A DNA stretch of 62,752 nt, counting the filler, from Nemertoderma westbladi (Eukaryota > Animalia > Xenacoelomorpha): the NCBI GenBank assembly GCA_032718475.1. It is 3 parts of 3 records of this genome, joined end to end, with 100 filler letters (N's around TTAATTAATTAA, not from the genome) between each part and the next. Parts side by side here need not be neighbours in the genome. Positions count along the whole stretch, not along the records: positions 1 to 17,750 come from JAUCBJ010000352.1; 2 more parts are not named here. One strand, given 5' to 3'. Made by a program: the position numbers and the translations under genes. The notes under the pieces were generated by a model. The model had not been told where the DNA came from, ran no database searches, and was given only the letters and a program-made list of their open reading frames with translations. Shown in pieces: positions 1 to 40,534 of the stretch (within the stretch, counting starts at the first letter, position 1; the number at the start of each line of letters is the position of its first letter).

Positions 1-1104
1 CCCGAACCCCGAAGGGATCGGTCATCAGGAAAGCGGTACGGCTTGGCTAAGGGTCGGTCCAGTCGGTAGACCCGGTTGCGTGTCTGTCCCACCCTTCCCG
101 AACCCCGAAGGGATCGGTCATCAGGAAAGCGGTACGGCTTGGCTAGGGGTCTGTCGTGTCGGTGGACCCGTTTGCGTGTCCGTCCCACCCTTCCCGAACC
201 CCGAAGGGATCGGTCATCAGGAAAGCGGTACGGCTTGGCTAGGGGTCCGTCGGTTCATCGCAGGGACCCAACCACCTAGGCTTTCCGAGTCCTTATTCAG
301 GCTCGTAGTCGCTTCGGTAGCCGAGAAGCTGCTCTGAATAGTCGGTAGGCCAGTGGGGTCCGGTCCTTTGTCTTTCGACCCCATTGCGTGTCCGTCCCAC
401 CCTTCCCGAACCCCGAAGGGATCGGTCATCAGGAAAGCAGTACGGCTTGGCAAGGGGTCTGTCAGCCCGTCGTGAGCGCCAATGGTTGGTGGTTTTCCGA
501 GTCCTTATTCAGGCTCGTACTAACGCCGGTCGTGGAACCCACTCCAGGAAGGCAGTCCTCGTCGAACCCTTCCTCCGTTAGTCGGTCGACCCGTTGCAAG
601 TCCCTGGCGTATGTCGGCAGGCTTTCCGAGTCCTTATTCAGGCTCGTACTAACTGCCGGTGACCAGGGACCGCTAAAGGTCTGTCTGTCGGTTCCCGTCG
701 CAAATCCCTGACACAAGCAGCAGACTTTCCGAGTCCTTATTCAGGCTCGTAATAACTGCTGTTGGCCAGGGACCGCTAAGGGCAGTCCTTGTCCTTTAGA
801 CCTAGCGAGTTACCAAATCCACCTCTAAAGGCAGCAGGAAGTTGGCTAGGCCTAATAGTAATCAGGGAAACCTGAATACTGCTTAACTTTGCCTCCCACC
901 CCTAAATGGCCCTGGCCCTTAAATACATGAAATGAGTCCCGTACCCCGTAAGTCGCCCCAATATTCGCCCATAAATCGCCCCCAGTCCATTGAATGTGCC
1001 CAAATCCTATGTTCCCGCACCCAGTAGTGATATCGGAATATTCACTTAAAATAAATCCAAAAAATATTCAACTCGCGTTAAGAAAAGTTGAAATACCGCA
1101 AACA
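1..1104 (-). repeat. 3' LTR of element 1 (truncated by window start)
   Basis: Colinear with 12660-13742. Begins TGTTTG on the minus strand at 1104, directly after a purine tract. Confidence 0.92.
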
Positions 1105-1115
1105 GTCCCCCCCAA
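1105..1115 (-). promoter_or_regulatory. Polypurine tract (PPT) of element 1
   Basis: Minus strand reads TTGGGGGGGAC|TGTT immediately before the 3' LTR, the usual BEL/Pao arrangement. Confidence 0.8.
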
Positions 1116-1283: not shown

Positions 1284-3890
1284 CTATTTCTTACTCTGAT
1301 ACGCCTTTCTCCTCTTCGCCCGTCGACTCTCGGCGATCGCCAGTGCTGGTAGGGGAGCATCAACATCCATCGTGAGTAACGTTTCAGCTTGTCTCCTGGC
1401 GGCTCTTCCTTTCGATGGTAGCGGGATCATATCCGTCCGTCTTTCCAACTCGGTATTGCGTGCCTCTAGGAACCACTTTCCGTCACTGAACTCTTCCATA
1501 TATGAATATAAACGCCTAAGGATCTCGAAGGGGCCGAATAATCCAGCGCTTAGTAATAGATCCACGTAATGGAATGGCAACGTCGCTGTCGTATGGAGGC
1601 GTTTCGGGAACGAAAAGTACCCGCACACCATCTCTTGTGCGATATTTCGAGCGCTTCTCCGCATTTTGGTCTTTACGTGGTTGTTTGCGTAGGTTTCGAA
1701 CATAACCTTATTTCCCATAGCGGTAACGTCCTTCATAGGACATTTTATATTACAGCGGGGGCTAGCGGAATGTCCACGGAAACCGCATGTTGTGCAGAGG
1801 TTGTAAAGGATAGGACAGACTGAAACATCGTGACCCGATGTCGCGCAATAGGGACAATAAAGTATCCCAAGGAGCTGGAGGCACGAATCGGTAACCCGAT
1901 TTCTTCTACCGCGTGGGCACTGCTCCGAACCGCAGTTTCCGCACACCTCCAGTTGCATCTCCCGGCCGACGAATATCGGAATCGGGATGCCGGCGTAATA
2001 CTCGAGTCGTCGGTTGCTTTTAGGAATATTCGCCGTGGCCGGTAGCCCGCGAAAAGCTGTGCTTTGGCGTAGTAGGTTCTCGTTTCGATAACCTTCTTTA
2101 TATCCTGCCGGACGCATCCCGGGTGACCGTTTCTGTCGGTGGATCCATTCGGTCTGCTCGGCATACCACCGGGTAAGTCGCATAGGATCTTGTGGAACGG
2201 AAGGGGTCGTTGCCACAGCTGGTCGGCGAAGAGGTGCCGGGGCGTTCGACGGAGGAATTCCGAGGAGATCTATGGGAGTAGGCGCAGTGCTGGGACCCTT
2301 TTCAACCTGTATCGCTGAGCGGGTCCGTTGGGTGCTGGTACTTGGGATCTCCGAAGACCAGTCTTCGCCCCCCGGGAACGGATATGGAGATAACCTCTGG
2401 CATATGTTGCCAAAGTCATTCAACGCGAAGGTAGTTACTAACTCCCTCGCGGGGCTACCGGAGCCAAGTGGGGTTGATACGCCTGCTTCCGTCGCAGGTT
2501 CGGCCGAGGCGACCCGTTTGGCGGCCGGTTCGTACGCGACTTCCGGATCGAGTTGTCGCTTTGGGGTGGACAGTAGAACACCTTCCTGTAACCATAATTC
2601 CTCCCCATCCGAAGAAATCAGAGGTTCCTCCGCACCTAGGAGATCGGTAATCGTAGGGATGTCGAACGGCCCATTCTCGTCCCAGGATGCGATGACGTTG
2701 AGCGTTTTCGTCTCTCCCGGTGAGATATTCTCTACCGCTTTGAACGCGTGGTCGATAATTTCGTTCCACTCATAGTCGATAAAGGATCTAGGGACCGCCG
2801 TAATGAGACTATCGAGAGTTTTACAGATGAACTTAGTGTGTAACTTAGTGTATGATTCCATTATGACGTAGATGTAGTTCCGTCGCTCCGGATTCTCCCA
2901 CTTGTGGTGGATCGTCCACTTTCTTTCAACGTCCTTCCAGCGACTCTCTCGCTCACTCTTTATTTCTAATTCCGGGTACCCACCATATATCTTATTATAA
3001 TCCTGGAATTTCTGGGGTTTAAAGTCTATACCGCCGTTTAGCACTGCGAGGTAGCCGATACCGGATTTCGTCCGTCTCACCTCTCGGAATCATCGCATGA
3101 ATTCGGCGGATCGTAACCAGGCTAATAGTGTTTGGGTGTCGACGCAATGACTAATGGCGTTGAGATCTTCTCGACAGTTTCTTCCGAAGGGAGCATTAGC
3201 GTAGTCGTTTCGGACATCCGCCTTTATATCCGACCCGATTTTAATGATGTCGAAGTCAAATAGGATCTGTTGGATCTCAGGTGGTAGTAGCCAGATCGCT
3301 CCGGCTGTCCGCACCTCCTGTTTGGATGTCGGAAATATTCGACATACCAACACCAAACCGTCTAGGGTTCCGAGGACGACGACCAAGGATCGACCATATT
3401 CCTTCGTCCCATACTTCTCCTGGTAGTCGTTGCGATTCTGGATAACTGATATACGTTCCTCTTGTAGCGTTGCCGTACATTCCGCTAGGTTTCCCCAGTG
3501 GGTGAGGTACGTACTCTTGTCGTCGACGAAACTTTGGCATCGTGCCAACGTAATCGCTTTCGAGGTGGGCGTCGCGTTTCCCTCGTTGTCGTATATCAAA
3601 CATCGGGATTTGTAGATGCTTTGCTGGAACATTTCCCAGAACGACAACTCATCTCCTCCGGTTGCCTTTGCATTCCGAGTTCTTTTCAGTCTCGTACTAA
3701 CATCGGTCAACCGGAGCTCTCGTAGATTACGGGAATCCGGTCCCTCTCGCCCGGAGAATTTAACGACTCGCACATTCTCATTTATCAGGGCGTTGCATTT
3801 TGTATCAAAGTTAGGGGATCCAGGTTGTGGATATTCCAGTAGATCTATTGTATTACGTAGTTCGCCGATAATTTGGCGATTTGGGTCCAT
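1284..3890 (-). pseudogene. Element 1 ORF3 copy B: DEDDy-like 3'-5' exonuclease + linker + triple Zn-knuckle-like domain (~868 codons, one in-frame TGA at 3090-3092)
   Basis: ORFs 3090..4067 and 1284..3080 are in the same frame; copy A has GGA where B has TGA. Motifs: LIYDNEG (3579-3590), LPPEIQQILFDFDIIKIGSDIKADV, VDTQ, SGIGYLA, YVIME, then CGNC..YCPYCATSGHDVSVC..CTTCGFRGH. Confidence 0.8.
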
Positions 3891-5502
3891 TTGGGTCGGT
3901 GCAGCGCTGGGACCCTTCTCGACCAGTATCGCTGAGCAGGTCCGTTGATTGCTGGTACTCGGAATCTCCGAAGACCAGTCTTCGCCGCCCGGGAAAGGAT
4001 ATGGGGATAACCTTTGGCATATATCGCCGAAGTCACTCAACGCGCAGGTGGTGATTAACTCCCTCACAGGGCTACCGGAGCCGCGTGGGGTGGAAGCACC
4101 TGCTTCCGTCTCAGGTACGGCCGAGGCAACCCGTTTGGCGGCCGGTTCGTATGCAGCTTCCGGCTCGAGTGGTCGCTTTGGGGTAGACAGTAGAACGCCC
4201 TCATGTAGCCATAGTTCTTCCCCTTCCCGAAGAAATCAGAGGCTCCTCCGCACCGAGAAGATCGGTAATCGTGGGGATGTCGTAAGGTCCGTTCTCGTCC
4301 CAGGAATCGATAACGGTGAGTGTTTTCGTCTCTCCCGGTGTAATTTTCTCGACCGCTTTGAACATGTGGTTTATAACCTCGTTCCAGTCGTAGTCGACAA
4401 AGGAAAGAGGAACCGCCGTAATGAGGTTATCGAGAGTTTTACATATGAACTTAGCGACGGTGTAGGACTCCATAATGACGTAGATGTAGTTCTGTCGATC
4501 CGGATTTTCCCACCTTTGGTGTATCGTCCACTTCCTGTCAATGTCCTTCCATCGACCCTCTCGCTCGCTCTTTATTTCCAATCCCGGGTATCCACCATAT
4601 ATCTTATTATAGTCCTGGAATTTCTGAGGTTTAAAGTCGATGCCGCCGTTTAGCACTGCGAGGTAGCCGATACCGGATTTCGTTTGTCTCACCTCGCGGA
4701 ATCCTCGCATGAATTCAGCGGATCGTAACCAGGCTAGTAATGTCTGGGTGTCGATGCAATGACTAATTGCATTGAGATCTCCTTTACGGTCTCTTCCTAA
4801 AGGAGCGTTCACGTAGTCATTCCGGACGTCCGCTTTTATATCCGACCCGATTTTAATGACGTCGAAGTCGAAGAGGGTCTTTTGGATTTCCAGAGGTAGC
4901 AACCAGATCGCTCCGGCTGCCTGCACTTCCTGTCTGGGTGTCGGGAATATTCAACACACCAATACCAAACCGTCCAGGGTTCCGAGGACGACGACCAAGG
5001 ATCGACCGTATTCTTTCGCCCCATACTTCTCCTGGTAGTCGTCGCGATTCTGGATAACGGATATCCGTTCCTCTCGTAGCGTCGCCGTACACTCCGCTAG
5101 GTTTCCCCAGTGGGCGAGGTACGTACTCCTGTCGTCGACGAAACTTTGACATCGCGCCAACGTCATCGCTTTCGAGGTGGGCGTCGCGTTTCCCTCGTTG
5201 TCGTATATCAAACATCGGGATCTGTAGATGCTTTGCCGAAACGTTTCCCAATACGACAATTCATCCCCTCCGGTAGCCTTTGCGTTTCAAGTTCTTTTCA
5301 GTCTCTTACTAGCATCGGCCAACCGGAGGGCTCGTAGATTCCAGGAATCCGGTCCCTCTCGCCCGCAGAATTTGACGTATCGCACATTCTCATTTATTAG
5401 GGTGTTCCAATCTGTATCAAAGTTAAGGGATCCAGGTTGTGGATATTCCAGTAGATCTATCGTATTACGTAATTCGCCGATAATTTGGCGATTTGGGTCC
5501 AT
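3891..5502 (-). pseudogene. Element 1 ORF3 copy A: diverged tandem duplicate of the exonuclease half (two TGA stops, one +1 frameshift near 4220)
   Basis: MDPNRQIIGELRNT start occurs at both 5502 and 3890 (offset 1612). ORFs 5287..5502, 4951..5259 and 4201..4926 are in one frame and match copy B. Confidence 0.85.
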
Positions 5503-6751: not shown

Positions 6752-7930
6752 TTAAACGGGTTTAGCATTGTCACCAATGTCCGCAGCAGGATCTGGAGTA
6801 GGGAACTTATCACCTCTCGTAGAGTCACCGCTGTCATTGCCTTCAAGAAGGCACAGCCTCTGGATAGGGCGTTGGTAGTGGCCCTTTGCCGTTCGTATCG
6901 TCACGGTCCTCGCAAGTCCATCTTTGCTCGGTTGTATTGCAACGACTCGCGCCACAGGCCAGTGGACGCAGTCTTTGAGGTCTTCTTTGACCAGCACCAT
7001 GTCGCCAACTTCGACATTCCTGTAGGTGTTGTTCCACTTCCTCCTGGTCCGGAGGGTTATGAGGTACTCCTGGGCCCAGATTCTCCACCAATGCGCTGCC
7101 AACGCTTGGGCCTTCTTCCAGTTAGTATGTCTCGCGATATCGTCGGGATCCGGAAACATCGTCTCTGGGAGAATATGGGTTTTGGGTCTTCCCAGTAGGT
7201 GGTTAGGCTCCAGGTCTGTGGGGTCGTCGCGGATAGGGACAATGGGCCGGTTGTTCAGGATAGCCGTGATCTCGCAGAATGTTGTGCGGAGGGTGTCGTT
7301 GGTTACCCGTGTGTCCCCTAATGCGACGCGCATGGATCGTTTTACCAAGTCGATGAGCTTCTCCCACACTCCGCTCGTATGGGGTGCTAAGGGTGTTTGG
7401 AAGTGCCACTGTATATGGTGTTCCCTCCAGACTTGGGATGCGGTGTCTTTGGTGAACCAACCCTCGATCGCCTCTCTAAGTTCTCTTTCTCCTCCCACAA
7501 AGTTTGTACCATTATCGGAGTACATATAACGACATGTTCCATTGTTTGCCACGAACCGAAGCAGGGCGTTGATAAATGCATGTTGCGTAAGGTTCACTAC
7601 GAGGTCTAGGTAGATCGCCCTAGACCTAAGGCAGGTAAAGATGGCTCCCCAGCATTTGATGTTGGATCGTCGCTCAATGACTGTGAATGGTCCGAAACAC
7701 TCTACTCTGGTTACATAGAACGGCGGGGAATCGGACTGCAGTCGTGTGGCTGGTAAATCGGCCATTCTTTGTGTGAGCGGTGGCGCTAGATATCTTCTGC
7801 AGGGAAAACAACGTTTTAACACTTTCCGGATCAGTGGCTGGATGTGGGTGATCCAACATCTTTGCCATATATTAGCCATAATCCAGTTCTGTCCTGCGTG
7901 ATGGTTTTCCTCGTGACACTGTTGGATTAA
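6752..7930 (-). pseudogene. BEL/Pao integrase (HHCC, DDE core, DUF5641-like C-terminus)
   Basis: CHEENHHAG...CFPC; VECFGP (first catalytic D replaced by E); YSDNGTNF; GVWEKLI; EYLITLRTRRKW..VGDMVLV..WPVARV..DGLAR. Confidence 0.93.
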
Positions 7931-8163
7931 TAGCTTGGCTAGTGTTGACGTTCCGGGCTGAAGCGCTGGGTATTAGACTTCGTATTAAACCGGGGCGTTT
8001 GCCATCCGGGTATTCAGTGGAATCAGTCCGTCTTCTCCCATCAATGGTCTCAATTGGTAGACTGGACTGTCTGGTTTTAAGGTCTTGCCCACTCGTCAGG
8101 GAAACTTACTTTCTGGACATATCTAATAATACATTTCTCCGCAATGATGCATTCTTGTATACT

Positions 8164-9758
8164 TCATCGAACTATCAGTTTGTTGTCTTTCCACCGCAGG
8201 AAGTTGCGAAGGGTTATGACGTGGAGGATGAGACGTCTCATTGAGGAGGTTCGCTCAATCAATAGTTGTAAAGACGCCGTTGGTTGCGTGATAGTCGCGA
8301 TATTATAGTGCCTGCCCGAGTCCTTTGCAGGCTCGGTCAGACAACTATAGATCTCCACTGTGGCGCTTCTATGGACTTTACGGATCTCCTTGTCGTCTTC
8401 AGAGTATTTTCCGCTATCTAGTTCGGGATTGAATCGGGTGCTCCAGGTTAATTGTGGCTGCTGTAGGAATTCCGGGCCTGTAAGCCAGAGTTTACTTTTA
8501 CTGAGTTGTCTTGGGGTGGCGCCTCTGCTCGATAAATCCGCTGGGTTTTCTTTCCCGTTTACATGGTGCCACTGTTCTCGGCGGTGCACTGTTTTATCTC
8601 AGTGGCTCGGTTCACTACAAACGTGGTGTGTCGCTGTGATGGTGAATGGAGGTCGGTCACCGAACAGTAACCTATGGAGTTTGCGTTCCCTTTGATCTGG
8701 CATTTAGGGAGATATGTATAGGTGTCGGTAGTCTCCTTTTTGATGCAGCAGAGTGTCCATCCCATGATTGTGCGTTCTGCATAAAAGCCATCGTCCGGCT
8801 TTACAGATCGGGCGAAGTCTCCGGTGGGTATGTGTAATTCTGATATGTCGAGTCTGATCAATAGGGTGATTCGGTTCACATCCAACGGTGGACATCGTAG
8901 GTCTACATCTTCCCGGTCTAGCTGTATGAGGGGTGCGTATTCAGCTGATTGTCGGAACTGCACTCGGAGATCGGTGTGTACCAAGGCGTTCTTGATCGTC
9001 AGCTTGTCCGTCTCGTAACCCTTCATAACTCCTTCCATCTTGAGTTGCACCTCCCCGGACTCTACTTCTCTATGGTCGGTGATAGTTTGTATGGGCCATT
9101 TGCAAGGTTCGTAGTCTAGGCCTAGTTGTTCGAGGAAATCCCGGTCGATGATGGTTCCGTCCGACCCGTTGTCAAGGAACGCGAGCGTTGTTAAAGATTT
9201 CCTGACCCCTTGAATTCTTACTGGGATCACTTTGGCAAAGACCATGTAACGGCAGTTTATAAGGTTGATCGTAGCCGAGATATTTGTCACATGTGATCCA
9301 TCGGTGGAGGTCTTAAACGGATTGGTTTCCCTCCATTGAATCGTCCGGGTACCTTTAGAGACGTGGTTCATTTCTCCACTTCGTTTGGCTTCGATCCAGA
9401 ACGGGAGGGTGGTAAAATCAAAGTTCGCAGGGATGTGGAGGAGTGTGTGATGACATATGTCATTACAGACCGCGCAGCACAATCTTTGCTCGCAATCCCA
9501 AACATAGTGACCTGTTCCGAGACACCGGAAGCATCCTCGGTGTTTCATTATTGCCTCGAAGCGTGGGACGAGTTCAGCAAACTGGAACTTTCTGCAGAAT
9601 TCCACCTTATGTTTCTCTCCGCAGAAAAAACATAGAAGGGAGGTTGCGGTGCCTTCCCTTTCGGGTGCCCAATTCGCTACATAACACGCCCATGCCTCGG
9701 CTGATGTCAGTTCCTCGTCGTTGGAATCCTCGGCCATGGTGATGGCCATCGTACTCAC
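8164..9758 (-). pseudogene. BEL/Pao Gag Zn knuckles + aspartic protease joined directly to the RNase H C-terminal end (RT deleted)
   Basis: CFFCGEKHKVEFC / CFRCLGTGHYVWDC / CAVCNDICHHTLLH, then LAFLDNGSDGT, then FVVNRATEI and WHHVNGKENPADLSSRG with no YxDD region between. Confidence 0.9.
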
Positions 9759-9812
9759 CGGAGGGGGGCGGAATCTCGGTTTCGGAGTGGGTGCCCTGCT
9801 CCTGGAGTTGTT

Positions 9813-11855
9813 CTATATTCCATCTAACTTGGAGAGACTTTGTTTAGAGAACATCGAGTCATTCATGGCTTCGGAGATATCATCTAGGAATGCCGACATT
9901 TCGAGGAAACTGGGATCTCGATCTGGGTGTCTGCGTTGGAGATCTATGCATTTATACGCCCACTTGCTTTGCAGCCATCCGGGGAACTTTCGGGCAATCT
10001 GTCGGAGGTTTAGAATGTTGTTTACTTGTTCCTCCTTATTTAATGGTTTTAGAGTGTAATAGGCATCTTTCATGGAATCCGAGAACTCTTGGATATTCTG
10101 TGGTTCCCCTAGGGATCCAGCGTCCTGTATCAGTTTCTCGAGAGTTTTATTAATTATAGTTCCGATATTTCCGTATCTTTTGTCTAGAGTTTTCCATGCA
10201 TCGTAGTAAGCTTCATGAGATCCTCCCTCAAAACATTTAATGATTCGACGTGGTTTGTCACCCAGGTATTGGGATAAATATACCAGTTTTTGTGCATCAG
10301 TTATATCCGTTGATCCGATCTGAGCGAAGAACCGTTTCTTAAATCCAAGGTAATTGACGGGGTCTCCCTCGAACTTGCGGATCTCCATCTTGGGCATAGC
10401 CAGGCGGTTTTCCAATGCTCGGATAATGCCGACGTCATCTGAACTGGAATGACTAGGAGGATTATAGTTATTAACACTCTCTCCCACGCAGGATGGGTCG
10501 ATGAGAGGTGGAGTTTTAATGATGACGCGGTTACGGATTTGTGGTGTGGATGTAAATGGAATGTTGGGTCGAGGGGTGGCGTCCCGTTCCGAGTCCTTTT
10601 CAGGCTCGTACTTGGGAACGCTCGGTACCGTGGGGTTGGATGGGAAATAAGGTTCCTCATTCTTAAGCGTAACCGGTGGGGGATGGAATACCAGTGCTTG
10701 TGCCGATAACGTAGACTGTATGGTTGGCGGGAACTCGGGTTTCGGAGGTTTCGCCGCCGAAGGCGTAAATGACTTCTCTAATTCCGGGACCGGGATTGGT
10801 TCATAGTTCTGTTCTATACCCCTTTCCCAGTCCTCATATAGTTGAAGATCCCGTTCTATGAGTGCGGCTTCGTATTCCGCGAGTTTCGCAATATCCGCAT
10901 TCTTTTTGTGGATGAGAATCGCTGGGGCCTCAGCATGTTGTTTACACATTTCTGCCTCTAGTTTACGTTGTTCGGCCTCTTGTTTGGCCTCTCATTCACG
11001 TTGTTCGGCCTGTTGTTCGGCCTCTCGTTTACATTGTTCGGCCTCTTGTTCGGCCTCTCGATCACGTTGTTCAGCCTCTCCTCTACGTTGCTCGGCCTGA
11101 TGTTCGGCGTCTCGTCTACGTTGTTCGGCCTGTTGTTCGGCCTCTCGTTAACGTTGTTCGGCCTGTTGTTCGGCCTCTCGTTTACGTTGTTCGGCCTGTT
11201 GTTTGGCCTCTCGTTTTTGCATTTCGGCTGCTAATACATCCTGTTCGATCTGCAGTTGAACATATTCGTCTTCCATTCGAGCTTTAAGGGCCAATGCCCT
11301 CTGTTCTCATAGCTGATCTCGGAGTAGCTGACCCCCTTGAGAACTGTGCGCTGAACCGGATATCTCGCTCCTAGTGCTGGAGTGCTGGTGCCTTGAGGAC
11401 CCCGTTCTCTTTCGATGAATTGCTGTCCTGGTGCTGGAGGTCTGTACCAATTCTGCGTCTGTTATTTCAGTTCACTTATAGTACTGTTCCTCGTAGCCTC
11501 TCATGAGGCTGAGGGTCCTCCGATGTTGTTTGCAAAACTCATCTAGATGTACAATGTGTTCTTCCAGTCTGGGGTAGTTTACCTGATCGGTGGCGGGGAT
11601 GAGTTCTTGATATGCCTGTATCATCCTCTCATATCGTTGTAAGATACTTCGGATATTCTGTAGCTGAGTCTGTATCTCGTTGAGGGGGGTTTCGACTCCC
11701 CTTAGTTGTTTCTCTATACGTTGATATGCTCGAGTGACTCCGCCTTTGAGAGCACCTAATCGACGGGTCATGTTCTTTACGTTCGGTACCTCGTCGATTT
11801 CCGAGTCTGTGTGGTGGTCCATCTCATCGGTGTCGGAGACGTTGTTCATTGTCAT
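9813..11855 (-). pseudogene. BEL/Pao gag of element 1 (stops/frameshift), with coiled-coil EAEQR repeat at ~10960-11230
   Basis: ORFs 11472..11855 and 9813..10949; MPKMEIRKFEGDPVNYLGF..QKLVYLSQYL..YYDAWKTLDKRYG; same frame as 8559..9758 across a TAG. Confidence 0.88.
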
Positions 11856-12043
11856 TCTAGCGCCTCGTTGATAGCTAGATATGCAATGTCGTAAAATAGT
11901 TCTTCGTAGGTCTCATATTCAGCCTGGACTACCCGAACGGTAATCCTGAATCGTCCAACGTTCGTTCCTTGTACTTCGACTTCGACGTGCCAGATTCCTG
12001 GCTCAACTTGGATTATATCAATGGGTGTGATCGATACTCCCAT
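11852..12043 (-). CDS. Small upstream ORF (63 aa) overlapping the gag start by ATGA
   Basis: ATG-initiated, protein-like composition; its TGA overlaps the gag ATG at 11852-11855. Confidence 0.35.
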   Translation of the reverse strand: MGVSITPIDIIQVEPGIWHVEVEVQGTNVGRFRITVRVVQAEYETYEELFYDIAYLAINEALE

Positions 12044-12563: not shown

Positions 12564-13742
12564 TGTTCGCTCAGATTCTAACCTAACTAATGTTCCCCAA
12601 TTTTCCCTCGGTCCTAGTCTCGGTACCGTAGTGTCGGTGTCGGTCGACCCTGTTGCGTGTCCGTCCCACCCTTTCAGGAAGCGGTACGGCTTGGCTAAGG
12701 GTCGGTCCAGTCGGTAGACCCGGTTGTGTGTCCGTCTCACCCTTCCCCAACCCCGAAGGGATCGGTCATCAGGAAAGTGGTACGGCTTGGCTAGGGGTCT
12801 GTCGTGTCGGTGGACCAGTTTGCGTGTCTGTCCCACCCTTCCCGAACCCCAAAGGGATCGGTCATCAGGAAAGCGGTACGGCTTGGCTAGGGGTCCGTCA
12901 GTTCATCGCAGGGACCCAACCACCTAGGCTTTTCGAGTCCTTATTCAGGCTCGTAGTTGCTTTGGTAGCCGAGAAGCTGCTCCGAACAGTCGGTAGGCCA
13001 GTGGGGTACGGTCCTTTGTCTTTCGACCCCGTTGCGTGTCCGTCCCACCCTTCCCAAACCCCGAAGGGATCGGTCATCAGGAAAGCGGCATGGCTTGGCA
13101 AAGGGTCTGTCAGCCCATCGTGAGCCCCAACGGTTGGTGGTTTTCCGAGTCCTTATTCAGGCTCGTACTAACGCCGGTCGTGGAACCCACTCCAGGAAGG
13201 CAGTCCTCGTCGAACCCTTCCTCCGTTAGTCGGTCGACCCATCGCAAGTCACTGGTGTATGTCGGCAGGCTTTCCGAGTCCTTATTCAGGCTCGTACTAA
13301 CTGCCACCGACCAGGGACCACTAAAGGTCTGTCTGTCGGTTCCCGTCGCAAATCCCTGACACAAGCAGCTGACTTTCCGAGTCCTTTTTCAGGCTCGTAA
13401 TAACTGCTGTTGGCCAGGAACCGCTAAGGGCAGTCCTTGTCCTTTAGACCTAGCGAGTTACCAAATACACCTCTACAGGCAGCAGGAAGTTGGCTAGGCC
13501 TAATAGTAATCAGGGAAACCTGAATACTGCTTAACTTTGCCTCCCACCCCTGGCCCTTAAATACATGAAATGAGTCCTGTACCCGGTATGTCGCCCCAAT
13601 ATTCGCCCATAAATCGCCCCCAGGCCATTGAATGTGCCCAAATCCTATGTTCCCGCACCCAGTAGTGATATCGGAATATTCTTTTAAAATAAATCCAAAA
13701 AATATTCAACTCGCGTTAAGAAAAGTTGAAATACCCCGAACA
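12564..13742 (-). repeat. 5' LTR of element 1 (~1.18 kb)
   Basis: Starts TGTTCG at 13742. Inner end inferred at CGAACA (12564), which gives a perfect 6-bp terminal inverted repeat. The inner boundary cannot be checked because the other LTR leaves the window. Confidence 0.8.
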
Positions 13743-17750: not shown

Positions 17751-17850
17751 NNNNNNNNNNNNNNNNNNNNNNNNNNNNNNNNNNNNNNNNNNNNTTAATT
17801 AATTAANNNNNNNNNNNNNNNNNNNNNNNNNNNNNNNNNNNNNNNNNNNN
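17751..17850. other. Assembly gap with TTAATTAATTAA linker
   Basis: 100-nt N run with a central all-frame-stop linker; the same structure occurs at 47898-47997. Confidence 0.97.
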
Positions 17851-23391: not shown

Positions 23392-23643
23392 GTGGTACTT
23401 TTATTTAATTGTCAAGCAGTGAAGTAAAAACCTTACCGGTAGGTATGCAGTACAAATGAAACAGTAAAAAAGCAACTGACCTGTAGACGTTGCACGCAAT
23501 CAGTTATCAGCTGACAACTGTCAGCTGATCACTGATTGCATGCAACGTCTACAGGTCAGTTGCTTTTTTACTGTTTCATTTGTACTGCATACCTACCGGT
23601 AAGGTTTTTACTTCACTGCTTGACAATTAAATAAAAGTACCAC
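23392..23643. repeat. 252-bp near-perfect palindrome (foldback/MITE-like)
   Basis: 125-bp arms centred on CTGACA-AC-TGTCAG (23517-23518); two mismatches seen. Confidence 0.95.
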
Positions 23644-23895: not shown

Positions 23896-24015
23896 ACCGT
23901 GCTCTGTGTGTGTATCTCTCTCTGTCACGCACTTCTATATAAGAAGGCCGTGCTCTGTGTGTGTATCTCTCTCTGTCACGCACTTCTACAGACGAAGGCC
24001 GTGCTCTGTGTGTGT
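23896..24015 (+). repeat. Left remnant (~2.3 units) of the 51-bp satellite
   Basis: CCGTGCTCTGTGTGTGTATCTCTCTCTGTCACGCACTTCTA... same unit as 41799-44536. Confidence 0.95.
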
Positions 24016-24886
24016 ATTATGGGTCTTTGTTTACCTTTTTTCCTGATGCCAGAACATCGGCTGTGGAATTATTCTGTGTTTCAGACTTTAGCCAAACATT
24101 AGAACGGCTTTGATTATAGAAACGTATAAACTGTTATCATAGCACAGCACAGCATATCACATACCAAACTGGCATATCAGCCTGTCATATCTCATAAAAA
24201 CACCGCATTATTTTACTGCTATTTACTGTCGGTTATTAATTGTATCAGTTGATTGAATGTTGTTATATTTGGAGAATATCGATGAATAATCATAAAACCC
24301 CAATCTTCTTGATATACTAAAGGTTAGAGAGACCGGTTACATATAACAATTGCGACTGACATTATATTGGTTTTGGAGTGAATCTAATGCTATTTCATAG
24401 GTCCTACAGGTGTCGGTTGCTGTTCTCTTTATATGTGACTAAAATTAGTGAAGGTCGGCAGATCAGTGTGCAGCAGTGTGCGGTAGTGTGCATGAGTGTG
24501 ATAGATAACAAAGCATCTCCTAAAGAATGCGCTTTATACGTGAATCATTAGCCATCCCGTTGTGTCTAGTGTAAGTCATAACTCTGTTTACATATTTAGA
24601 GCGCCATGTCCTAAAGGAACTGTTAATATTTCCCGAAAGTGAATAATATTTGTCAGAGATTATATATTAGTGATCAATCGAATAGTAGAGTAGGCCTACA
24701 CCGCAATAAGGTCAGAGCTTCCGAATCCAGTCTCCCGGGTATATCCAGCGGGTGAATGGTCGCGCATAGGCTGGCTTCGGCTAATGTAGTGTACCAAATA
24801 CTTGTCATAGGCTAAAGTCGATTTATAACCTAAAAAGACACCTAAATTTGGCAGGTTAAACTGCTAAAGGTCTAAAAGCGCGAACA
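24016..24886 (+). repeat. 5' LTR of element 2 (5'-truncated by ~330 bp)
   Basis: Nearly identical to 40937-41798 (about 7 substitutions and one 9-bp indel by eye); ends CGCGAACA. Confidence 0.92.
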
Positions 24887-26708: not shown

Positions 26709-27098
26709 ATGTCTGACACAAAGCAAAACCTGTCAGACAGTCTCCTAGATACAACCATCTGTGACGCAGACAGGAGTATGGAACGTGTAAGACCGAAGTT
26801 CAACTCACCTCCTACTGTAAGAAAGATCATCCCTCCAGTAGTAGTATCAGACCCTAGGCTAGTCAAACATCGTAGGTCTATCATAGGCACTCGGGCTCAA
26901 GTCAAGCGGGACCAAGTAGCAGCTGTTAAACAGCTGCAACACTCGAGCCGAGAACTTAGTTTTCAGCAGCCCGATAGCTCCAGTAGTGCTGATACTGTAG
27001 AACTGACACCCGAGCGCGGAATGATGGAAAGATGGCAGATACGGTTTATTCGGATCCCCTTCTCATTCTTCCTGCATCCGTACTCACTAGGGTATTGA
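26709..27098 (+). CDS. Upstream ORF (129 aa) overlapping gag, or a frameshifted gag N-terminus
   Basis: ATG-initiated ORF right after the AT-rich leader; overlaps the gag ORF in a different frame. Confidence 0.35.
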   Translation: MSDTKQNLSDSLLDTTICDADRSMERVRPKFNSPPTVRKIIPPVVVSDPRLVKHRRSIIGTRAQVKRDQVAAVKQLQHSSRELSFQQPDSSSSADTVELTPERGMMERWQIRFIRIPFSFFLHPYSLGY

Positions 27099-30000
27099 TT
27101 GCGGTGGAAGAACACCAGATTGATTGGGCGAGAAGTATGCGATCGACCAAGGACAGTTATGCGGGATACGCAAGGGAGGAACTGAAGTCTATTGTCGAGT
27201 CGCAATGGAACTTCCCCGGACCCGGACTCCCGTTTGAAGCTGCCTGGGAAGACATACACAGGATGGGAGTAACGAAAGACACTAGGGATCCAGCTGTGTG
27301 GAAGGGGTCGGCAGCAGGATATGTACAGGGATTCTTCAGCTCTTTAGAGCGATTAGAAGAACAACTGTTTCGACAACCCCAAGGACCTCAAGAGCAGGGA
27401 GAGCTGCTTTATCAAGTTAGAGAAAGAATTCTAAGAATCAGACTAATCCTATTGGCCTTTGAGGAAGCTTCGAAAAGAAGACAAGACACGTCGTTGCAAG
27501 TTGCCGTAAAGACTTGGTTCCAGCGGGTGAGTCTCAAGGATCAAGGAGCGGCCCGGTGGAAATCTCAGCTGGCTGAGTGCTCAACCCATGGAGAATCAAC
27601 AGACGCTACCTTTTCCCAAGTGGAAAGTGAAGCGACAGCAGAGAAACCGCATAAGAGGGATGCTATTGACATCTATCTGTCAGACTATCAACGATTTCTA
27701 TGTGATGAAGAGTTGAGGAGAAGGCTAGCTGGACTTCGTCCGAATAGCGAAGGAACCAAGCTTGTGTTGGACGCAATCGATGCGGAAATGTTAGCTGCGA
27801 ACCAAGCTAAATTTGATGAAAGACTCCGCATCGCTAGGGTCCAAGAAGAACAAGTAAAGAGAAAACGTATAGAAGACAGAAAGACAGCAGCAGCGGCAGT
27901 GGCAGCGGCAGAAGCGGAAAGAAAAGCGGCAGAGGCGGAAAGAAAGATGGCAGTGGCAGAAGCGGAACGGAGAGCGTCTGAAGAGACCACCCAACTAGAG
28001 TTGGAAAATATTCAAGAGAATCAAGACTGCATAAATAAACAGTTAACAGGTAGTCAAATGCAGATGATGAGTCGATCTACTCCCAAGAGGCAGGGATATA
28101 CATCATCTGATGAAGGCGATACCACCGATCCTGAAGGCGGAGGAAATAGATCTCGTTTAAGCAGACGGAGAAGAATGCCTCACCGTCAGAAATTGCCTGA
28201 TTTGCCCCCAGCTGTTAGAAGGCGACTAGCTAACACTAACTTAGGTAGTACAGAACCCACAGGCCAAATTATTAAAATAGAAAGACTCCCTACTATAGTA
28301 GATGAGCCTGAAATAATTAGGCCTATTCTCGAAGCCACCCCTTCGGTGATAGAGACACCTGTACTCCCTGAAACTACCTCTAAATTCCCTCTGCACAGCA
28401 CTAAACTGCCTGTACCCAACAGAACCACCCCTGAAAATGTTCATATCCTGGACTCCGAGCGAAATATTAATGATTTGTCGCCCGTTGTCCCTCGTCCGCC
28501 CGCTACAACGTTGGCGCCTCCCGCTTCGACGGTCGAGTGGGTAGATGAGGGACGACGGGAGATGGGTCTCCTGCTCGGGCAGCTGAGGGAACACCATTCT
28601 TGCTCCTCTCAGCAGGTCCGGGAGATGGATGGGACTGTGCAGCAGTTAAAGGGAACAATCAGAGAGGGTAGGTTAGAGTTGCAAGAAGTGCAGCAGTGTA
28701 TCGCGTTAGAACGCGACAAATTAGTAAATATCCAAAAGGGTATACCACCACCCCCTGTAACAATGTGTCAACCTGTTAGGTCTGAAGTATTTCATGCGCA
28801 AGGTGTGGAGCCTACACGCATCTATACTGCTAGTGAAGTAGAAACTCCTATAGCAAACCCTATTAAGGGTAATTATAAACCTGTTGACAATGATATTCCA
28901 TATAGACCTGACCATAATCCGAGAAATTTATATACCGATAACTCGATATTAAATAACACGATGGCCCAAGAAAGTTTTACACGTCAAATGGCTAGAACCG
29001 AAGCCCGTCAAGCGGTAAAGGTGGGAGAGATCGTCAAGTTCAATGGAGATGAGATGAAATGGTTACCTTTTACTGAATATTATAAGGATAACATACAGAA
29101 CTCTGTGCTATCTAACGGAGAGAAGTTTAGATTCCTCATCGAGTGCTTGGAAGGATCTCCCAAGTTAATGGCGTTAAAGTTTATTGGACATCCAGATGGA
29201 TTAAGACAAGTTTGGGATACACTAAACATCAGGTATGGTAATAGGAATAACATAGCTAGATATTTGTATGCAAAATTGGTAGCGCCCCGAAAGTTCATTA
29301 GCAACGGGATTATAGAGTTTTCCGATGAGATTCAGGAGATCTGTAGACAATTAGATTGGCTAGGTAAGTCTCATGAATATCAGAGTTCTATGGTTATTGG
29401 AGCCGTGGCCTCTACTTTACCAAAGGGTGGAGTAGGTACACGCTGGGACAAGAAAGTCTTATATATGATGGAACAACAACGAAGAGACCCTACCATGGCT
29501 GATCTCATGTCATTCTTAGATGGAGAGGTGAAATTGCAGCTCCTAAAGCAGTCCAGAGAGAAGACACCGGAAAATAAGGTAAGTGAGAAACCCGTTTCTA
29601 GGAGAAAGGTAACACCAGTGTGTTATACAGACGACTGCGAAAGCCAGGCTTCTCAAGAAGAAGACAGCGGGAAAGACACTGAAAGATCTTACTATGTCAA
29701 TAAAGCTTCTAAAGACGTGAGTAAATTTAAGTCTCGAACCAATGACAGGAGAGAACAGGTAAGAAAAACTCCTCCTACGTCTCCTAAGAGAATTCATATA
29801 AGGAAGCCCGAGGAAAGAACTAGTGTGCACAACGTTACCCAAAGTAAGGTAAGTAACATTAAACCGAAATGTGCGCTGTGTGACGGGCCCCACCGATTGA
29901 GTGTGTGTGATGAATTTCTCAAGAAATCACTCAAGGATAGGCGTGAAGTCATGTAGGATAAGCGGTTGTGTGATAATTGCCTCAGACAAGGACACCAACG

Positions 30001-33000
30001 GCGAACCTGTTACTCCGACACAAGGTGTGCAAAATGCGGTGCGAAACATCATATCTTGTTGCACACTGAATTCGAAAGAAACAGCCCGAGTCAGGTAAGT
30101 GAGTTCGAACTACATGTCCAATTCAGTGATGTGAACGACACTGACCAAAGTTCTGAGATGGAAGGATTCTATACAGATGAATTCTCCGACAAAAACGAAT
30201 CCTGTTACCTAATAAATACCGCAGTGTATCGAGCACTTACGTATGAGAAGGAAACCGACAGGGAGCTTCTCCCCCCAACTGCTCCTGACCGACAACTATC
30301 TTGGAAAGCACCAACTTCCAATGTAGGAATCAGAGAATTTCCCGTAGTGCAGTTGAGAGTCCACGGGCCTAATCAGAGTTATATCGTAAACGCCCTCCTT
30401 GACTCCGGCAGCACAGGAACATTTATTGACAAAGAGCTAGCCGAGGACATCTTTGCTGGACAACCCAAGTTCCGAACTAAGTTAAACATGTCTGGAATTA
30501 TGCAGGTTTGGAAATCTACAGTAATCGCAGATTATTATGTAGGTGCGTTGTCCACTCCCCAGGATGAACTAGGAGAACACAGTATAAGGTCAGTAAAAAT
30601 GGTGGCGATAAAGAACTTCGCTACCAGCCAAGTGGAACCTTATAACTGGGATGAGGACGAGTTCACCCAGCAGCATAGGATACCTAGATTCAATACAGAC
30701 TATCCTGGAGTGCAAATACTTATCGGCCAAAATGCGCATGAGGCGCTTAAGACATTGGAGAAACGGCCTACTCGACCGCAACCACTACAAACCTATGCGG
30801 GAAGATGTTGGTACTTTACTGGCCCTTCCCGTAGAACCCTCATGGAAAGGTTACCACAAGAACAGGTATACCAGGTAAGTGAATGGGGAGAGGAGAACAG
30901 TGAGGTAGACAAACCAACTGAGGGAACACCATACTCCTCAGATAATGATGACATCCATCAGCTCTTTGACGAGGAGAAGACCATCGACCTCCTTACGGAA
31001 AACGAAACTTGGCAAAACCAAGTGAATCTATGTCATCTCATTCATCCAGATGAACAAGTGTATAACGACGAACTTAATGAAGTGATAGATCGCTATAACG
31101 CGAAAATTCGAGATGAACACGCCGTACGATTCTTTACTCAAGAGGCTGTAGAGCCCAATTCCTACGATAAGGCCCTATCGGTAGAAGAAGAAAAAGCCAA
31201 GCAGATCCAGGAGACAACTACACGTTTTCTCAAAGATCAAGGCAGATACGAAATTGGTCTGCCATTTAGAAAGCGAGAACCTAAATTCATAAACAACTGA
31301 CTCTTGGCGGAGAAAAGAATTGCGCAACTACATCGACGCCTTATGGCAAATACTTCTGCTAAGGAAATGTACAAGGCTCAATTGGAAAAATTTATTAGCA
31401 AGGGATATGCAGAACGAGTACCTGAAGGAACACCCACAACTGAGAGAACATACTATCTAACACATCATTACGTTCCCAAACCCCGTAAACCCAATGAAGT
31501 CCGGGTAGTATTGGACGACTCCGCCCTCTACATGGGCCAATCCCTTAATTCCGAGTTGTTGCCAGGACCCAACTTACTCCAATCCTTGTTGGGAATACTC
31601 CTAAGATTACGACAATATTTCATCGCTTTCGCCTCCGATATAGAAGGCATGTTCTTACAAGTTAAGGCGCTGGATAGGGATCGAGACAGCCTACGATTTC
31701 TGTGGTGGCCGGAAGGGGACCTCAACCAGAAACCGGTGGAGTACTGGATGACCATCTAGGCTTTTGGGATCATCTCAAGCCCTTCAAACGCCTGCTCAGT
31801 AGTGCGCACCACTGCTGATGACAACCGGGACGCCTTCTCTAAAGAGGTGATCGACAATATCAAACGGGATATATACATGGACGACAATTTAAAGTCCCTC
31901 CCATCGGTGGAAGAAGCCATTGATGTCGCCAAAGGAACGGTAGAGTGCTTAAAAAGAGGTGGATTTCGATTAACTAAATTCACCAGCAACTCCCGTGAGT
32001 TTCTGGAATCGATCCCGGTAGAAGATCGAGGAGCGAAAGATCTAGACCTAATCAAAGACGATCTTCCAGAAACCAAAACACTTGGTTTGAAATGGGACAC
32101 GGAGAGAGATATCCTGTTTTTCCAGCTAAAACAGCGAGATAATCCAGTTTGGACTAAACGGATTTGTCTAAGTATCCTGAGCACTTATTTCGATCCATTG
32201 GGATTTATTAGCCCAGTTATATTGATTGCTCGGAGTTTAGTACAACAAATGTGGCTTGAAAACCACTCATGGAACGATCCACTTAAGGGAGAACTATTAA
32301 AGAAGTGGATGAAATGGGAAGATTCTCTACCATCCATCGAGAACTTTATAATTTCCCGTTCATATTTTGGTCATGTTCTCCCTACGTATTCCTATCAACT
32401 CCATGTGTTTGGAGACGCCAGCGATATGGGAATAGGTATAGTAGCCTACCTGAGAGTTGAAACTCCGGATGGAATCAAAGTCGCCTTGGTTACCTCTAAG
32501 GCATTGATAAATAACAAGTTGAAAGTTCCTCGAGCGGAGTTAAAAGCGGCTCTATACGCTACAGCCATCGGCCGGAATGTCACAGAACAGATCGAATATC
32601 CACTGGAAAAAACAGTCTATTGGACCGATGCTTTACTCGTGTTGGAGTATATAACCAATGAAGTTTGTCAGTTCAGCGTCTTCGTTACCAACAGAGTAGC
32701 CATTACACTTAGTCGCACGAAGATAGATCAATGGAGACATTGCCCTGGGACGATTAATCCAGCAGACATCGCCTCCAGGGGAGCAACTCCGCAAGAACTG
32801 ATAGATACTCCAGACTGGTTAGGTGGACCCGACTTCCTAAGCAAAGAAGAGGATGAATGGCCTCCTCATCTTACTACGGCGGAGATTAGACAGGCCAAGG
32901 GAGCGGAGAAAGTCAAACCTAAAACTCGGGCGAGTAAATCGAAGTTATTCAAACCTGCGATAGATCTGTCTGTACTACACGTTTCCAGAGACGATGCTTT

Positions 33001-34761
33001 GGATCCACAATCCCCCGCCACAAATAAGTCTGTTGTGGAAATCAGAGAGAGAGATTGGAAATCTGGAACGCCAGACGTCTCGCAAGGACTCTCACCCCTC
33101 CTGCAGAGAGTGATACATCACTATAGTTCCTGGAATCGGCTCTGTAAGGCCGTTACATATTTAAAGCGATGTTTTCATCATCACTACTCCCGGACGAAGA
33201 CCACTTTGATACCGCTCCACTGACATCTGTGCAGGTCCATGTTGTTAAAGATCTTCCCAAATACAAGGTATCAGATAGGTTTCTGACGGAGAAGATCAGT
33301 TACCAGAAGCATGAAGAAACCAATAAGCAGATACTGAGACTCCTGCAATGCTATGAGGATTCCGATAAGTATTTCCTGTTGTTGAGAAATCCACAGATGC
33401 GCTTAAGGGATCGTTTCTCTAGCACAATGATAGATGGGTTAATACGTGTTGAAGGAAGACTAACTAATGCTCCATTATCCTTTGACAATAAGTTTCCCAT
33501 ACTCATTAGAAATCTTGAAATACAAATCAAGATGATTGTAGATGTTCACAGTAAACTTTATCATGCTGGTAGAGAACGAGTTCTTAGCGAAATTCGAACT
33601 CGCTATTATTTTTATAAACGCCGTAGAGCTCTGAACCAAGTTCTTAGGAACTGCATACCCTGTAGGAAAGCATTCAGTAGGCCTTTAACACAGCGAGAGG
33701 CAGAATTACCTAGGCAACGAGTAAGCTTCTATGAACCACCCTTTACCAATACCGGTGTGGATTTATTTGGCCCTATTGAAGTATATGGTGCTAGGACTAT
33801 AGTCAAGAGATGGTGTGTCATCTTTGTATGTATGACTTGTAGAAGAGCTATCCATCTCGATATGGTGAACGATTTGTCTACCAATAGCTTCCTATTGAGC
33901 TTACGCCGACAGATCGCTCGCTTTGGAACTAGTAACACGATGAGATCTGATAAGGGAACGAACTTCATTGGTGCCAACAATGAAATCAAAGCTTACGTCA
34001 AAGATTGGAACCATTGACAGGTGGACGATCAGCTAAGGGTAACAGCGTCTAGCTGGACCTTCAACGCCGCCGATGCCCCTTGGTGGGGAGGGAGTTGGGA
34101 GAGATTAATCAGGAGCGTGAAGACCGCATTTCACTTTATAGTGCCGTGCCGCGCGTATCTCACCGACGAACTTTTGCGGACGTTAATGGAGGAAATCGCC
34201 GCCTATCTCAACGAGAGACCGCTTATGCCAGTCTCATCGAGTCCCAATTCCCTGGAAGCGCTAACACCCGTGCACTTCCTACTGAAGAAACCTGTAGCCA
34301 TGCTCCCACGATCGGAAATCACGGACGGAGACGAATACTGCCGGCAAACTTGGCAACTTATGCAGTTGGTATCCCGTCGTTTCGCTGACCATTTCGAAAA
34401 ACATTATCTGCCCATGCTACAACTTCGAACTAAGTGGTTTACACAACAAGAAAACGTCAGCGCTGGAGACATGGTTCTTATTGTGGATTCAGATCTTCCA
34501 CGTAAGCGGTGGCAGACAGGTCGTATCATCGAGACTCATATCTCGGAGGATGGTTTGGTGCGATCGGTAGAACTCGTCGTCATGCGACGTAACTTTAAGA
34601 AACCGGGAATCATCTTTGAGACACAGCAACTCAATCGCCCAGTTGGTCGTTTATGTTTACTGGAAAGAGACAGAGAACTCTCCGGAAACTATGGAAGGCA
34701 AGATACTCTTCCCACGACCACCTCCCTAATCCCACAAACATCTAGGGACTCCCCAACGTAA
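27032..34761 (+). pseudogene. BEL/Pao gag-pol polyprotein (4 in-frame stops, 1 frameshift near 33180)
   Basis: KFNGDEMKW (DUF1759-like), CALCDGPHRLSVC/CDNCLRQGHQRRTC/CAKCGAKHHILLH, protease LLDSGS, RT PGPNL..DIEGMFLQV..YMDD, RNase H VFGDASD..PRAEL..WTD..NPADIASRG, integrase GVDLFGP/SDKGTNF/GSWERLI. Confidence 0.97.
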
Positions 34762-35600: not shown

Positions 35601-36397
35601 ATAAAATTTACGGGAATAAATTTAAATTCATATTTTAATGAATTTGATAAATTGTCATTTTTATACAATTTGCAACATTCCCAAAATTCCATTAATTAAT
35701 AGATCATGGGAGCGGAGATTCACCCTATTAAGTATATTAGTGTGCGAGAATCTCCAATATATAGTCAATAGCCGATAAAATTCATAAAATCATGTATAAA
35801 GAGGAGTATTGACAATTAAAGAATTACTGTTAAATAGCATCCCAGATCTGTATGCATGGGAATTACCCTAATTCTACCGCTGGCTTTCCATAATGTCACC
35901 ATAGCAACAACCACGTTAGAATTAGAAGCGAGTTAAAAGAACAATAGAAAGCTTGCCCCATTGAATAGCATAGAGAATAAATAGCACACTGTTAGTATCC
36001 AAGGATACAGAATAACAACGTGGCATTCTGGAAGGCACTTGACTAACGGACAAATGGCCCGAATGTGTACAATTTGTGACAGTTGTGTGGAATTTGTGCG
36101 TTTGTAGGTGAATGTTACTACTAAAGTGTGTTTACAGTAGCGAGTCGCAATTGTGAAAGTAGCCCTAACTCTCCAGTAAGAACCTGAAGTCAATCTAAGC
36201 CTTTGGGACGGACAGTGGAGTGACTTGTGCCGGTTATCGTTGTCGTTGTGTAGCTACTACGTTGGCGAAAAACACAGCGATGACGGTACATCGGCGCTGA
36301 GGATCTTGCACTGTCCGGGGGCCGAGAGGGATAGGCAGCGACGCCCGCTAGCCTAAATATAAACTCATTATAATATTAATAAACCCATATAGCAGTT

Positions 36398-39300: not shown

Positions 39301-40534
39301 AGGACGTTTGTATACAGAACTTACATTACTCTGTTATACAAAGACCTCGAATACCCACGGGTTATTCTATCGTGGAAGTTCAGACAATAGGTTCACTTGC
39401 GGAAACAGCCGCGCCTACCTCAGCTATGCAATTGGAAGACGAACCAGTTTAGAATCTGAGGAGATTCAGCCTACAGCGCCCCGGAGTAGCGATAACGATT
39501 ACGTCTTAGAATGGTATCAAGGTCCACAATGTCTCACCGCATACGATTATCGGCACGCCAACTATGTTTCTCGAAAACGTTGCCGATTATGTGCATTGAG
39601 AGATCATTTCACCCCCATGGACTCAGACGTACCCTGCTCCTATTTCCATGAGCAACCGGTGATGGAGATTTATTGTGCGTATTGCAGACTCAATAACTCA
39701 CACATTTTTGCAGTCTGCCCTCAATTTATGACTCAATGTCATCATTGTCAACTTAAAGGAAATGCCAGTTTTGATTGCCCTTTTAACCGCGATCTGGAAA
39801 GCGTAGATTAGATGATTACCCTGCGCTACATCCGAGCTTGGGAAGCGAATGCGGATTTACATTGTGAGTCACGCCATCGCTATTACCCTGGACGCGCCTA
39901 CGAAGGAGTTTACGCGTTCCATCCTTATCGATTCGAATCTGTTGAACAAAAATCACGCACACCGAGTGACGAACTAATGAAGCGTGTTGGTGAGTGTATT
40001 TCCACCAAATTTGTTCGTAAATATCTCAGGAATATCAATCCTAACGATATCCATTCATACCACTTGATCAATTTCATCCGTCAAGACCCGGAGTATGGTG
40101 ATCTGTTTATCAACTCGCATTCAGAGTTACAGGAAGTACATCGACGGCCCTATGAATATCAAGCCCGAGAACGCGAGTTGGAAAGAACCATTAAACCGAG
40201 GAAGTTTCTCACCACTCACGGTCGACCTACCACTATCGTTCAGATGACTCGTCAAGGACCTGTAGGAGCTGCTGTCCTAAAACGCGCTCTAAAAGCCGTT
40301 AGACCTCGCTCCTCTGAGGTTGATATCAATCAACCAGGTACCTCGACCGGCGGATACACTGACCGTAATCCTAAACCTTCTGATGCAATTGTATTGCACC
40401 CTTCACCCAGGAGTTATAGCCCTCCTAGTAAAGTGGCTCGCCCCAAAGAGAGAAGGACTCTTGCTAGCCTCAAAAAACTGCGTAAACGCCGTCCGCGCAA
40501 GAAAGAGTATTTAGAGTATTTAGAGACTGTTTAG
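36398..40534 (+). pseudogene. Element 2 ORF3 (~1370 codons reconstructed): unknown N-terminal region + DEDDy-like 3'-5' exonuclease + triple Zn-knuckle-like domain + basic tail
   Basis: Seven consecutive plus-strand ORF pieces tile 36398-40534. Motifs: VVTHDNEG (38412-38423), LPQPMLEMLFNERILKIGSAVYGDLQND, FVDTQ, SIGHLA, IYTIFE, then CRLC..H, YCAYCRLNNSHIFAVCP, CHHCQLKGN. Confidence 0.8.

Follow-up and report, generated by a model that had tools for sequence, protein, structure and literature searches.

Two BEL/Pao LTR retrotransposons of Nemertoderma westbladi each carry an extra open reading frame, ORF3, between pol and the 3' LTR, and its product is predicted to be an accessory protein that joins a 3'-5' exonuclease of the WRN/RNase D type to zinc knuckles. 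Judged from its sequence, the exonuclease domain departs from the DEDDy pattern at the fourth catalytic acid, which is Glu instead of Asp, and it is filed here as a DEDE variant and not as a canonical PF01612 member.

The window analyzed is a stretch of 62,752 nucleotides, filler included, joined from three parts of assembly GCA_032718475.1 (Table 1). The elements were assigned to BEL/Pao from their LTRs and their Pfam domains (DUF1759 for gag, Peptidase_A17/RNase H, integrase, and DUF5641 at the end of pol). DUF1759, the protease, Integrase_H2C2 and DUF5641 are found in both elements and Peptidase_A17 in element 2, and the two integrases are 32–38% identical. In element 1 the reverse transcriptase is absent: tblastn with pieces of the element-2 pol matches the RT/RNase H region over 45 residues only. 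Element 1 is a non-autonomous copy. Between 8164 and 9812, where the reverse transcriptase is deleted, its protease nearly abuts the RNase H tail.

ORF3 is laid out as an exonuclease-like domain, a linker and Cys/His knuckles. No membrane segment of the env type is found in it, the highest 19-residue hydropathy being 1.2 for element 2 and for the outside homologue P0004 described below, and 2.1 for element 1, where the peak falls on the predicted strand 2–3 hairpin. Element 1 contains the 5' half of ORF3 twice, in tandem. Since the two copies, which are under selection, diverge more from each other (87.5% identity, dS 0.35) than the LTRs do (94.8%), the sequences suggest that the pair likely goes back to two sub-lineages that recombination or template switching brought together, and not to duplication in place.

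Table 1. Positions of the retroelement parts and of the ORF3 exonuclease motifs in the window
Feature	Position	Strand	Remarks
Element 1, 3' LTR	25..1104	-	94.8% identical to 12674-13742; might extend beyond the window start; internal tandem repeats
Element 1, purine tract just inside the 3' LTR	~1107-1114	-	LTR edge and G-run read
Element 1, ORF3 copy A	1284..3890	-	868 codons; exonuclease domain, linker, Cys/His knuckle domain; one premature stop
Zinc-knuckle and C-terminal domain, copy A	1554..1952	-	tblastn with P0004 residues 498-608, E 2.4e-10
ExoIII YVIME, copy A	2856..2870	-	Glu codon GAA at 2856-2858; codons read directly
ExoII Asp, copy A	3216..3218	-	Codon reading; invariant column D130 in two alignments
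ExoI D-N-E, copy A	3582..3590	-	GAC AAC GAG; rival acid-less placement ~50 codons downstream
Element 1, ORF3 copy B	3895..5502	-	Tandem 5' partial copy, 87.5% identical to 2278-3890
ExoIII YVIME, copy B	4468..4482	-	Glu codon GAG
ExoII Asp, copy B	4828..4830	-	Codon reading
ExoI D-N-E, copy B	5194..5202	-	GAC AAC GAG
Element 1, gag (DUF1759), protease, RNase H tail, integrase (Integrase_H2C2, DUF5641)	6752..11912	-	Pfam
Element 1, 5' LTR	12674..13742	-	94.8% identity to the 3' LTR
Element 2, 5' LTR	24013..24679	+	99.25% identical to 40934-41600
Element 2, gag-pol, several pieces	26993..34761	+	DUF1759, protease, Peptidase_A17, Integrase_H2C2, DUF5641
Element 2, ORF3 region	36383..40534	+	Stops and frameshifts; exonuclease ~38367-39119, knuckles ~39668-39787
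ExoI D-N-E, element 2	38412..38420	+	GAT AAC GAA
ExoII Asp, element 2	38715..38717	+	Codon reading
ExoIII YTIFE, element 2	39039..39053	+	Glu codon GAA; BLASTP with P0004, contig variants
Element 2, 3' LTR	40934..41600	+	99.25% identity to the 5' LTR

Several other features lie in the window. A tandem repeat of ~96 bases lies within the LTRs of element 1 (1-520, 12630-13170). Upstream of the element-2 exonuclease, ~600 codons of ORF3 (36383-38333) contain a Cys cluster, with no Pfam match and no counterpart in element 1. A nearly perfect palindrome, its 125-nt arms separated by a loop of 2 nt (23392-23643), is situated 370 bases upstream of element 2, and an array of more than 50 tandem 51-bp units (41667-44640) directly follows the 3' LTR of this element. 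Remnants of other mobile elements are a transposase with a broken integrase core (PF24764; 21350-22353) and two non-LTR reverse transcriptases (RVT_1; 50729-52247 and 59092-60297). An intron-less coiled-coil ORF of 414 codons (46506-47750) matches an IQ motif weakly (E 0.06) and ends in a Lys-rich tail; it presumably resembles IQCG/DRC9 and is perhaps a retrocopy. The filler between the joined parts (17751-17850 and 47898-47997) appears as two pairs of 44-base N runs with 12 bases between.

The codons of the ExoI D-N-E, the ExoII Asp and the ExoIII YxxxE were read directly at all three sites, and they bear out the motif positions given in an earlier sequence-only reading of this DNA. That reading counted three exonuclease copies. 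All three are present, but those of element 1 belong to a single lineage, which brings the number of deep lineages in the window to two rather than three. Premature stops, read as X, interrupt copy A (3090-3092), copy B (4951-4953 and 5287-5289) and element 2 (38469-38471), so that protein is not expected from any of these copies. The exonuclease domains of elements 1 and 2 are homologous (BLASTP E 4e-10, identity 24–25%), and the ExoI acids, the ExoII Asp and the ExoIII Tyr are retained among family proteins that are 24–29% identical. The ExoII Asp is invariant in 60 of 60 alignment rows, with an hhalign E of 8.7e-4 across its region, and the ExoIII Tyr forms the invariant column Y229 in the alignment of the four family proteins. 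Four residues after this Tyr, all four have Glu, whereas all 31 of the bacterial PF01612 references aligned have Asp. In the second strand, P0004 and element 2 have His where the references have an invariant Gln. Ahead of ExoIII there is an insert with invariant F-K and Y-G (2980-3040, 38880-38945, and residues 184-200 of P0004). Both the insert, which is specific to the family, and the Gln to His change may have a role in substrate binding.

The ORF3 proteins of the window gave no exonuclease match in sequence searches of Pfam and the PDB, and their DEDDy identity therefore rests on a bridge protein, P0004. This unbroken protein of 648 residues, the sole member of its cluster, was the single match when 1.84 billion representatives were searched with a profile (E 9e-11). 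It matches element 2 (E 1e-14) and the two element-1 copies (E 9e-16 and 4e-12) over both domains. Against PF01612 it scores E 0.2 and 11.9 bits, under the Pfam cut-off of 23.6, and its ExoI-to-ExoII part aligns to 24 bacterial references in hhalign with an E of 5.6e-4. The knuckles of P0004 find a match in retroviral nucleocapsid (E 1e-4) and also resemble Air2. In the atlas, its features lie closest to a cluster with PF01612 and zf-CCHC (0.86, a lead only).

A profile of the 31 references gave element 2 and P0004 scores above those of 200 out of 200 shuffles, and the scores of the element-1 copies were reached by 7 and 18 of 200 shuffles. Comparison by hhalign with 17 WRN-like bacterial proteins gave no significant match (E 0.035 and 0.013). 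Word-based searches returned no homologue among 433 and 5905 candidates and only P0004 itself among 7692. No relative of ORF3 was found in two metagenome scans and one viral scan; tblastn against phage gave matches only at E values of at least 5, and the best atlas score for the element-2 ORF was 0.75, with nothing useful.

Structure prediction with AlphaFold2 on the three window domains gave no fold (pLDDT 31). Because automatic alignments were unstable, P0004 was folded with 56 bacterial rows trimmed ahead of the ExoIII region, and the first half of the model leans on these rows. The model has pLDDT values of 73–95 over residues 31–160 and 221–260 and is predicted to adopt an RNase H-like fold with a long C-terminal ExoIII helix. 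The helix (residues 224–251, pLDDT 73–82) bears Y229 and E233, and the ExoI D-x-E, which ranks first, is on the modelled strand 58–66. In element 2 the D-N-E is followed by the strand 2–3 block. A Foldseek search with the model found Egalitarian as the top match (E 2e-7), together with EXD2, trypanosome RNase D and EXD1, and VIA-align gave Z scores of 14.4 for NrnC, 14.3 for Nibbler, 13.1 for RNase D and 13.0 for WRN.

The match to WRN (2fbt) superimposes residues 27–248 of the model on residues 48–231 of the chain (175 aligned, rmsd 3.3). The offset at its end is 17, which, if the last helix is gapless, places Glu233 of P0004 on Asp216, a known catalytic residue of WRN. One Klenow row (1kfd) in VIA-align gives an offset that is off by one residue, when the fourth acid of Klenow is taken to be Asp501. 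Y229 is the best of 281 P0004 sites for an ExoIII block of 51 bacterial sequences, which were selected by that same motif, and the second best when the acid column is left out; the window sites are outside the top four for this block. With the ExoIII block of P0004, YVIME is the best of 384 sites in copy A. The P0004 motif W-x2-P-L-x3-Q-x2-Y-x3-E equals the WRN/MUT-7 pattern W..PL...Q..Y...D, as given in Fig. S1 of PMC3706591, except for the final acid. The ExoIII block, the helix and the WRN end offset agree in predicting the Glu at the place of the fourth acid. The sequence-only reading raised the case of a Glu lying away from the active site; in the model the P0004 Glu is found in the ExoIII helix.

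We lean, with moderate confidence, toward an ORF3 product that is an RNA-binding 3'-5' exonuclease, probably active, with a DEDE-type site that trims element RNA or host small RNAs. The fixed Glu would still hold the catalytic metal, a small shift of the helix would accommodate its longer side chain, and two-metal catalysis would survive. The likeness of the knuckles to those of retroviral nucleocapsid and Air2 points to RNA as the substrate, which the knuckles would hold. The target would be either the element's own transcript or host small silencing RNAs, with RNA 3' ends trimmed to the benefit of the element. Across ~75% divergence, the acids, the Tyr and a fourth carboxylate have been kept. 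In PhoExo I, as described in the available text of PMC4538837, the fourth acid is a Glu that binds metal A, and the E145Q mutation abolishes the 3'-5' exonuclease activity. This essential Glu indicates that a DEDE site is workable on an RNase H fold. The same source pairs PhoExo I with RNase HIII, in which Glu is also the fourth, metal-A-binding acid. The analogy to ORF3 is weakened in that these precedents are RNase H-type and not DEDDy enzymes: they fall outside the DnaQ/DEDDy family, have another order of acids and lack the ExoIII Tyr. The invariant Asp in 31 of 31 bacterial references also counts against an active DEDE site, as it indicates a position that is normally intolerant. An altered metal geometry or substrate, as the sequence-only reading suggested, is plausible.

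The strongest competing explanation, which we consider unlikely though to be taken seriously, is that the Glu distorts the metal A site, that catalysis is lost or unneeded, and that the domain and its knuckles grip RNA 3' ends. Such a pseudo-nuclease could serve in packaging or transport of element RNA or as a decoy for host silencing factors, in the way of Egalitarian, EXD1 and Exuperantia. Egalitarian and EXD1 are host genes with the same fold and with RNA-binding roles (PMC4712191; bioRxiv 10.1101/2025.08.03.668247; both as far as their available text goes). Egalitarian, the top Foldseek match, has Asp at all places and keeps all five residues, yet their mutation leaves RNA binding and function intact according to the bioRxiv text, so that conserved acids are no proof of a needed catalysis. 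Mouse EXD1, inactive according to the text of PMC4712191, has Glu at the fourth position; it has, however, also lost the Asp residues of ExoI and ExoII and reads SDLN or AELE, whereas the ORF3 family retains the Tyr along with three acids and a carboxylate in fourth position. The replacement of the invariant second-strand Gln by His in P0004 and element 2 would fit a loss of catalysis. In contrast, the VIA-align Z scores of NrnC, Nibbler, RNase D and WRN are level with or above those of Egalitarian and EXD1, and a fixed carboxylate is what selection for metal binding would leave. The pseudo-nuclease or decoy put forward in the sequence-only reading is less supported than an active enzyme, since DEDD pseudo-nucleases that are proven have lost their ExoI and ExoII acids and a Glu functions as the fourth acid in other nucleases with the RNase H fold. 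The invariant Asp of the references, Egalitarian and mouse EXD1 are our reasons for giving a pseudo-nuclease, and to a lesser degree a wrong register of the motifs, some weight.

A wrong register is improbable in our assessment. The ExoIII Tyr would then be that of the Tyr-Gly 30 residues upstream (Y199 in P0004), with the fourth acid missing and YxxxE structural, or the first strand of element 1 would be the acid-less one downstream of D-N-E. Several MAFFT runs do put the reference Tyr on Y199, and the register flips with the set of rows; in ungapped scoring with the P0004 ExoIII block, the element-2 YTIFE is just third of 267 sites. But Y199 is followed by Gly and Pro, no helix is modelled there (pLDDT below 50 for residues 201–217), the structural match to WRN extends to residue 248, and BLASTP pairs YTIFE with YIYCE of P0004. 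For the first strand, a helix-plus-strand profile gives the acid-less element-1 site the top rank in copy A and the second rank in copy B; against the bacterial profile this site and D-N-E score about equally. Against this placement, the ExoI block of P0004 has D-N-E as its best among 383 sites in copy A and, in element 2, as the second best among 266, and the element-2 ExoI block also ranks the copy A D-N-E first, with a score reached by 14 of 2000 shuffles. By sequence comparison, D-N-E is likely the ExoI motif of element 1 and is favored over the acid-less placement. Two successive helix-strand-hairpin-like units, the second without acids, are seen in the element-1 proteins (3330-3590 and 4940-5200), possibly the product of an old internal duplication.

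Three lines of sequence evidence indicate that the Glu is an inherited trait of the family, as the sequence-only reading proposed in calling it a lineage feature and not decay. The first is purifying selection: copies A and B, compared at 259 core codons, differ with dN 0.06 and dS 0.35 (dN/dS 0.17, bootstrap 0.10–0.29, Fisher p 2e-14), and the Glu codon differs only silently, GAA in copy A and GAG in copy B. The second comes from contigs of the element-2 family, whose sequences are plentiful in one organism's public DNA runs (5330 contigs on 1.6 kb in one run). The survey covers element 2 alone, and its main run may be the source of the window itself, so it is not fully independent. The stop of the window's element-2 copy is missing from nearly all of the contig depth. 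Over 39012-39086, 284 contigs from 4 of 7 runs gave four variants listed from 1%; GAG is the only one listed at the Glu codon, and the preceding codon has a variant that changes the amino acid. The missing Asp codon is weak evidence by itself, as it would need a transversion and only contigs at least 80% alike were counted. The third is P0004: the sequence-only reading proposed looking for Asp in intact relatives, and the lone one found reads YxxxE. That the Glu is a random change in dead copies is hardly credible: all three window copies have stops and element 1 has no reverse transcriptase, but the Glu is common to two lineages at 25% identity, is encoded by both GAA and GAG, and recurs in the element-2 family and in the unbroken P0004.

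Retroelements with a DEDDy ORF3 are already known from bdelloid rotifers, where the Juno and Vesta LTR retrotransposons and the Athena/Terminon elements carry them (PMC5408684). As far as the available text of that report describes them, the rotifer and BEL/Pao ORF3 are alike in being extra ORFs between pol and the 3' LTR that encode an RNase D-like exonuclease and no membrane segment. The hosts are gypsy-like and Penelope-like elements in rotifers, in contrast to BEL/Pao here, and the knuckle domain after the exonuclease in BEL/Pao ORF3 sets it apart from the rotifer ORF3 of that text. The same text states that 'DEDD is changed to DEED' and shows no activity. As written, the change to Glu is at the third acid in rotifers and at the fourth in BEL/Pao, although the remark may concern a change like the BEL/Pao one. 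No rotifer ORF3 was among the returns when the 1.84 billion representatives were searched. Some Dada transposons carry DEDDy domains with all four acids. The BEL/Pao host and the fourth-acid Glu were not found in the literature searched: the available texts, including PMC6431247, PMC8220671, PMC13524379, PMC12440569 and PMC6338049 and lying outside Repbase, subscription papers, figures and bioRxiv supplements, mention neither an exonuclease ORF of BEL/Pao nor a DEDDy enzyme that naturally has YxxxE.

Among cellular enzymes, WRN, EXD2, Nibbler/MUT-7, RNase D and NrnC have in common with ORF3 the predicted fold (Z 12–14), the ExoI D-x-E, the ExoII Asp and W..PL...Q..Y ahead of the last helix. 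ORF3 differs from the WRN/RNase D group in its fourth acid Glu, the His for the strand-2 Gln, the Tyr-Gly insert and a score below the Pfam cut-off. The architecture of exonuclease and CCHC knuckle is shared with Trypanosoma brucei RNase D (7c42-7c4c), which represents the closest atlas cluster and has the highest identity to P0004 among the structural matches (20–21%). This euglenozoan RNase D is a cellular gene and not part of a retroelement.

A bolder version, which we regard as speculative and rather improbable, is that an old BEL/Pao lineage captured an enzyme of the WRN/Nibbler type, rebuilt its metal site to DEDE, added nucleocapsid-like knuckles and degrades the 3' ends of host piRNA or siRNA. 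If true, ORF3 would give an animal retroelement an anti-piRNA factor that is an enzyme, and it would be the first DEDE-y exonuclease known from nature. The role of exonuclease ORFs on retrotransposons has been a question since the rotifer report, and the pattern now extends to BEL/Pao. The ORF3 family escapes Pfam, and an unbroken natural protein, P0004, is available. The replacement of Asp by Glu is itself conservative, and the family serves as a natural experiment on how strict the need of DEDDy enzymes for Asp as the fourth acid is.
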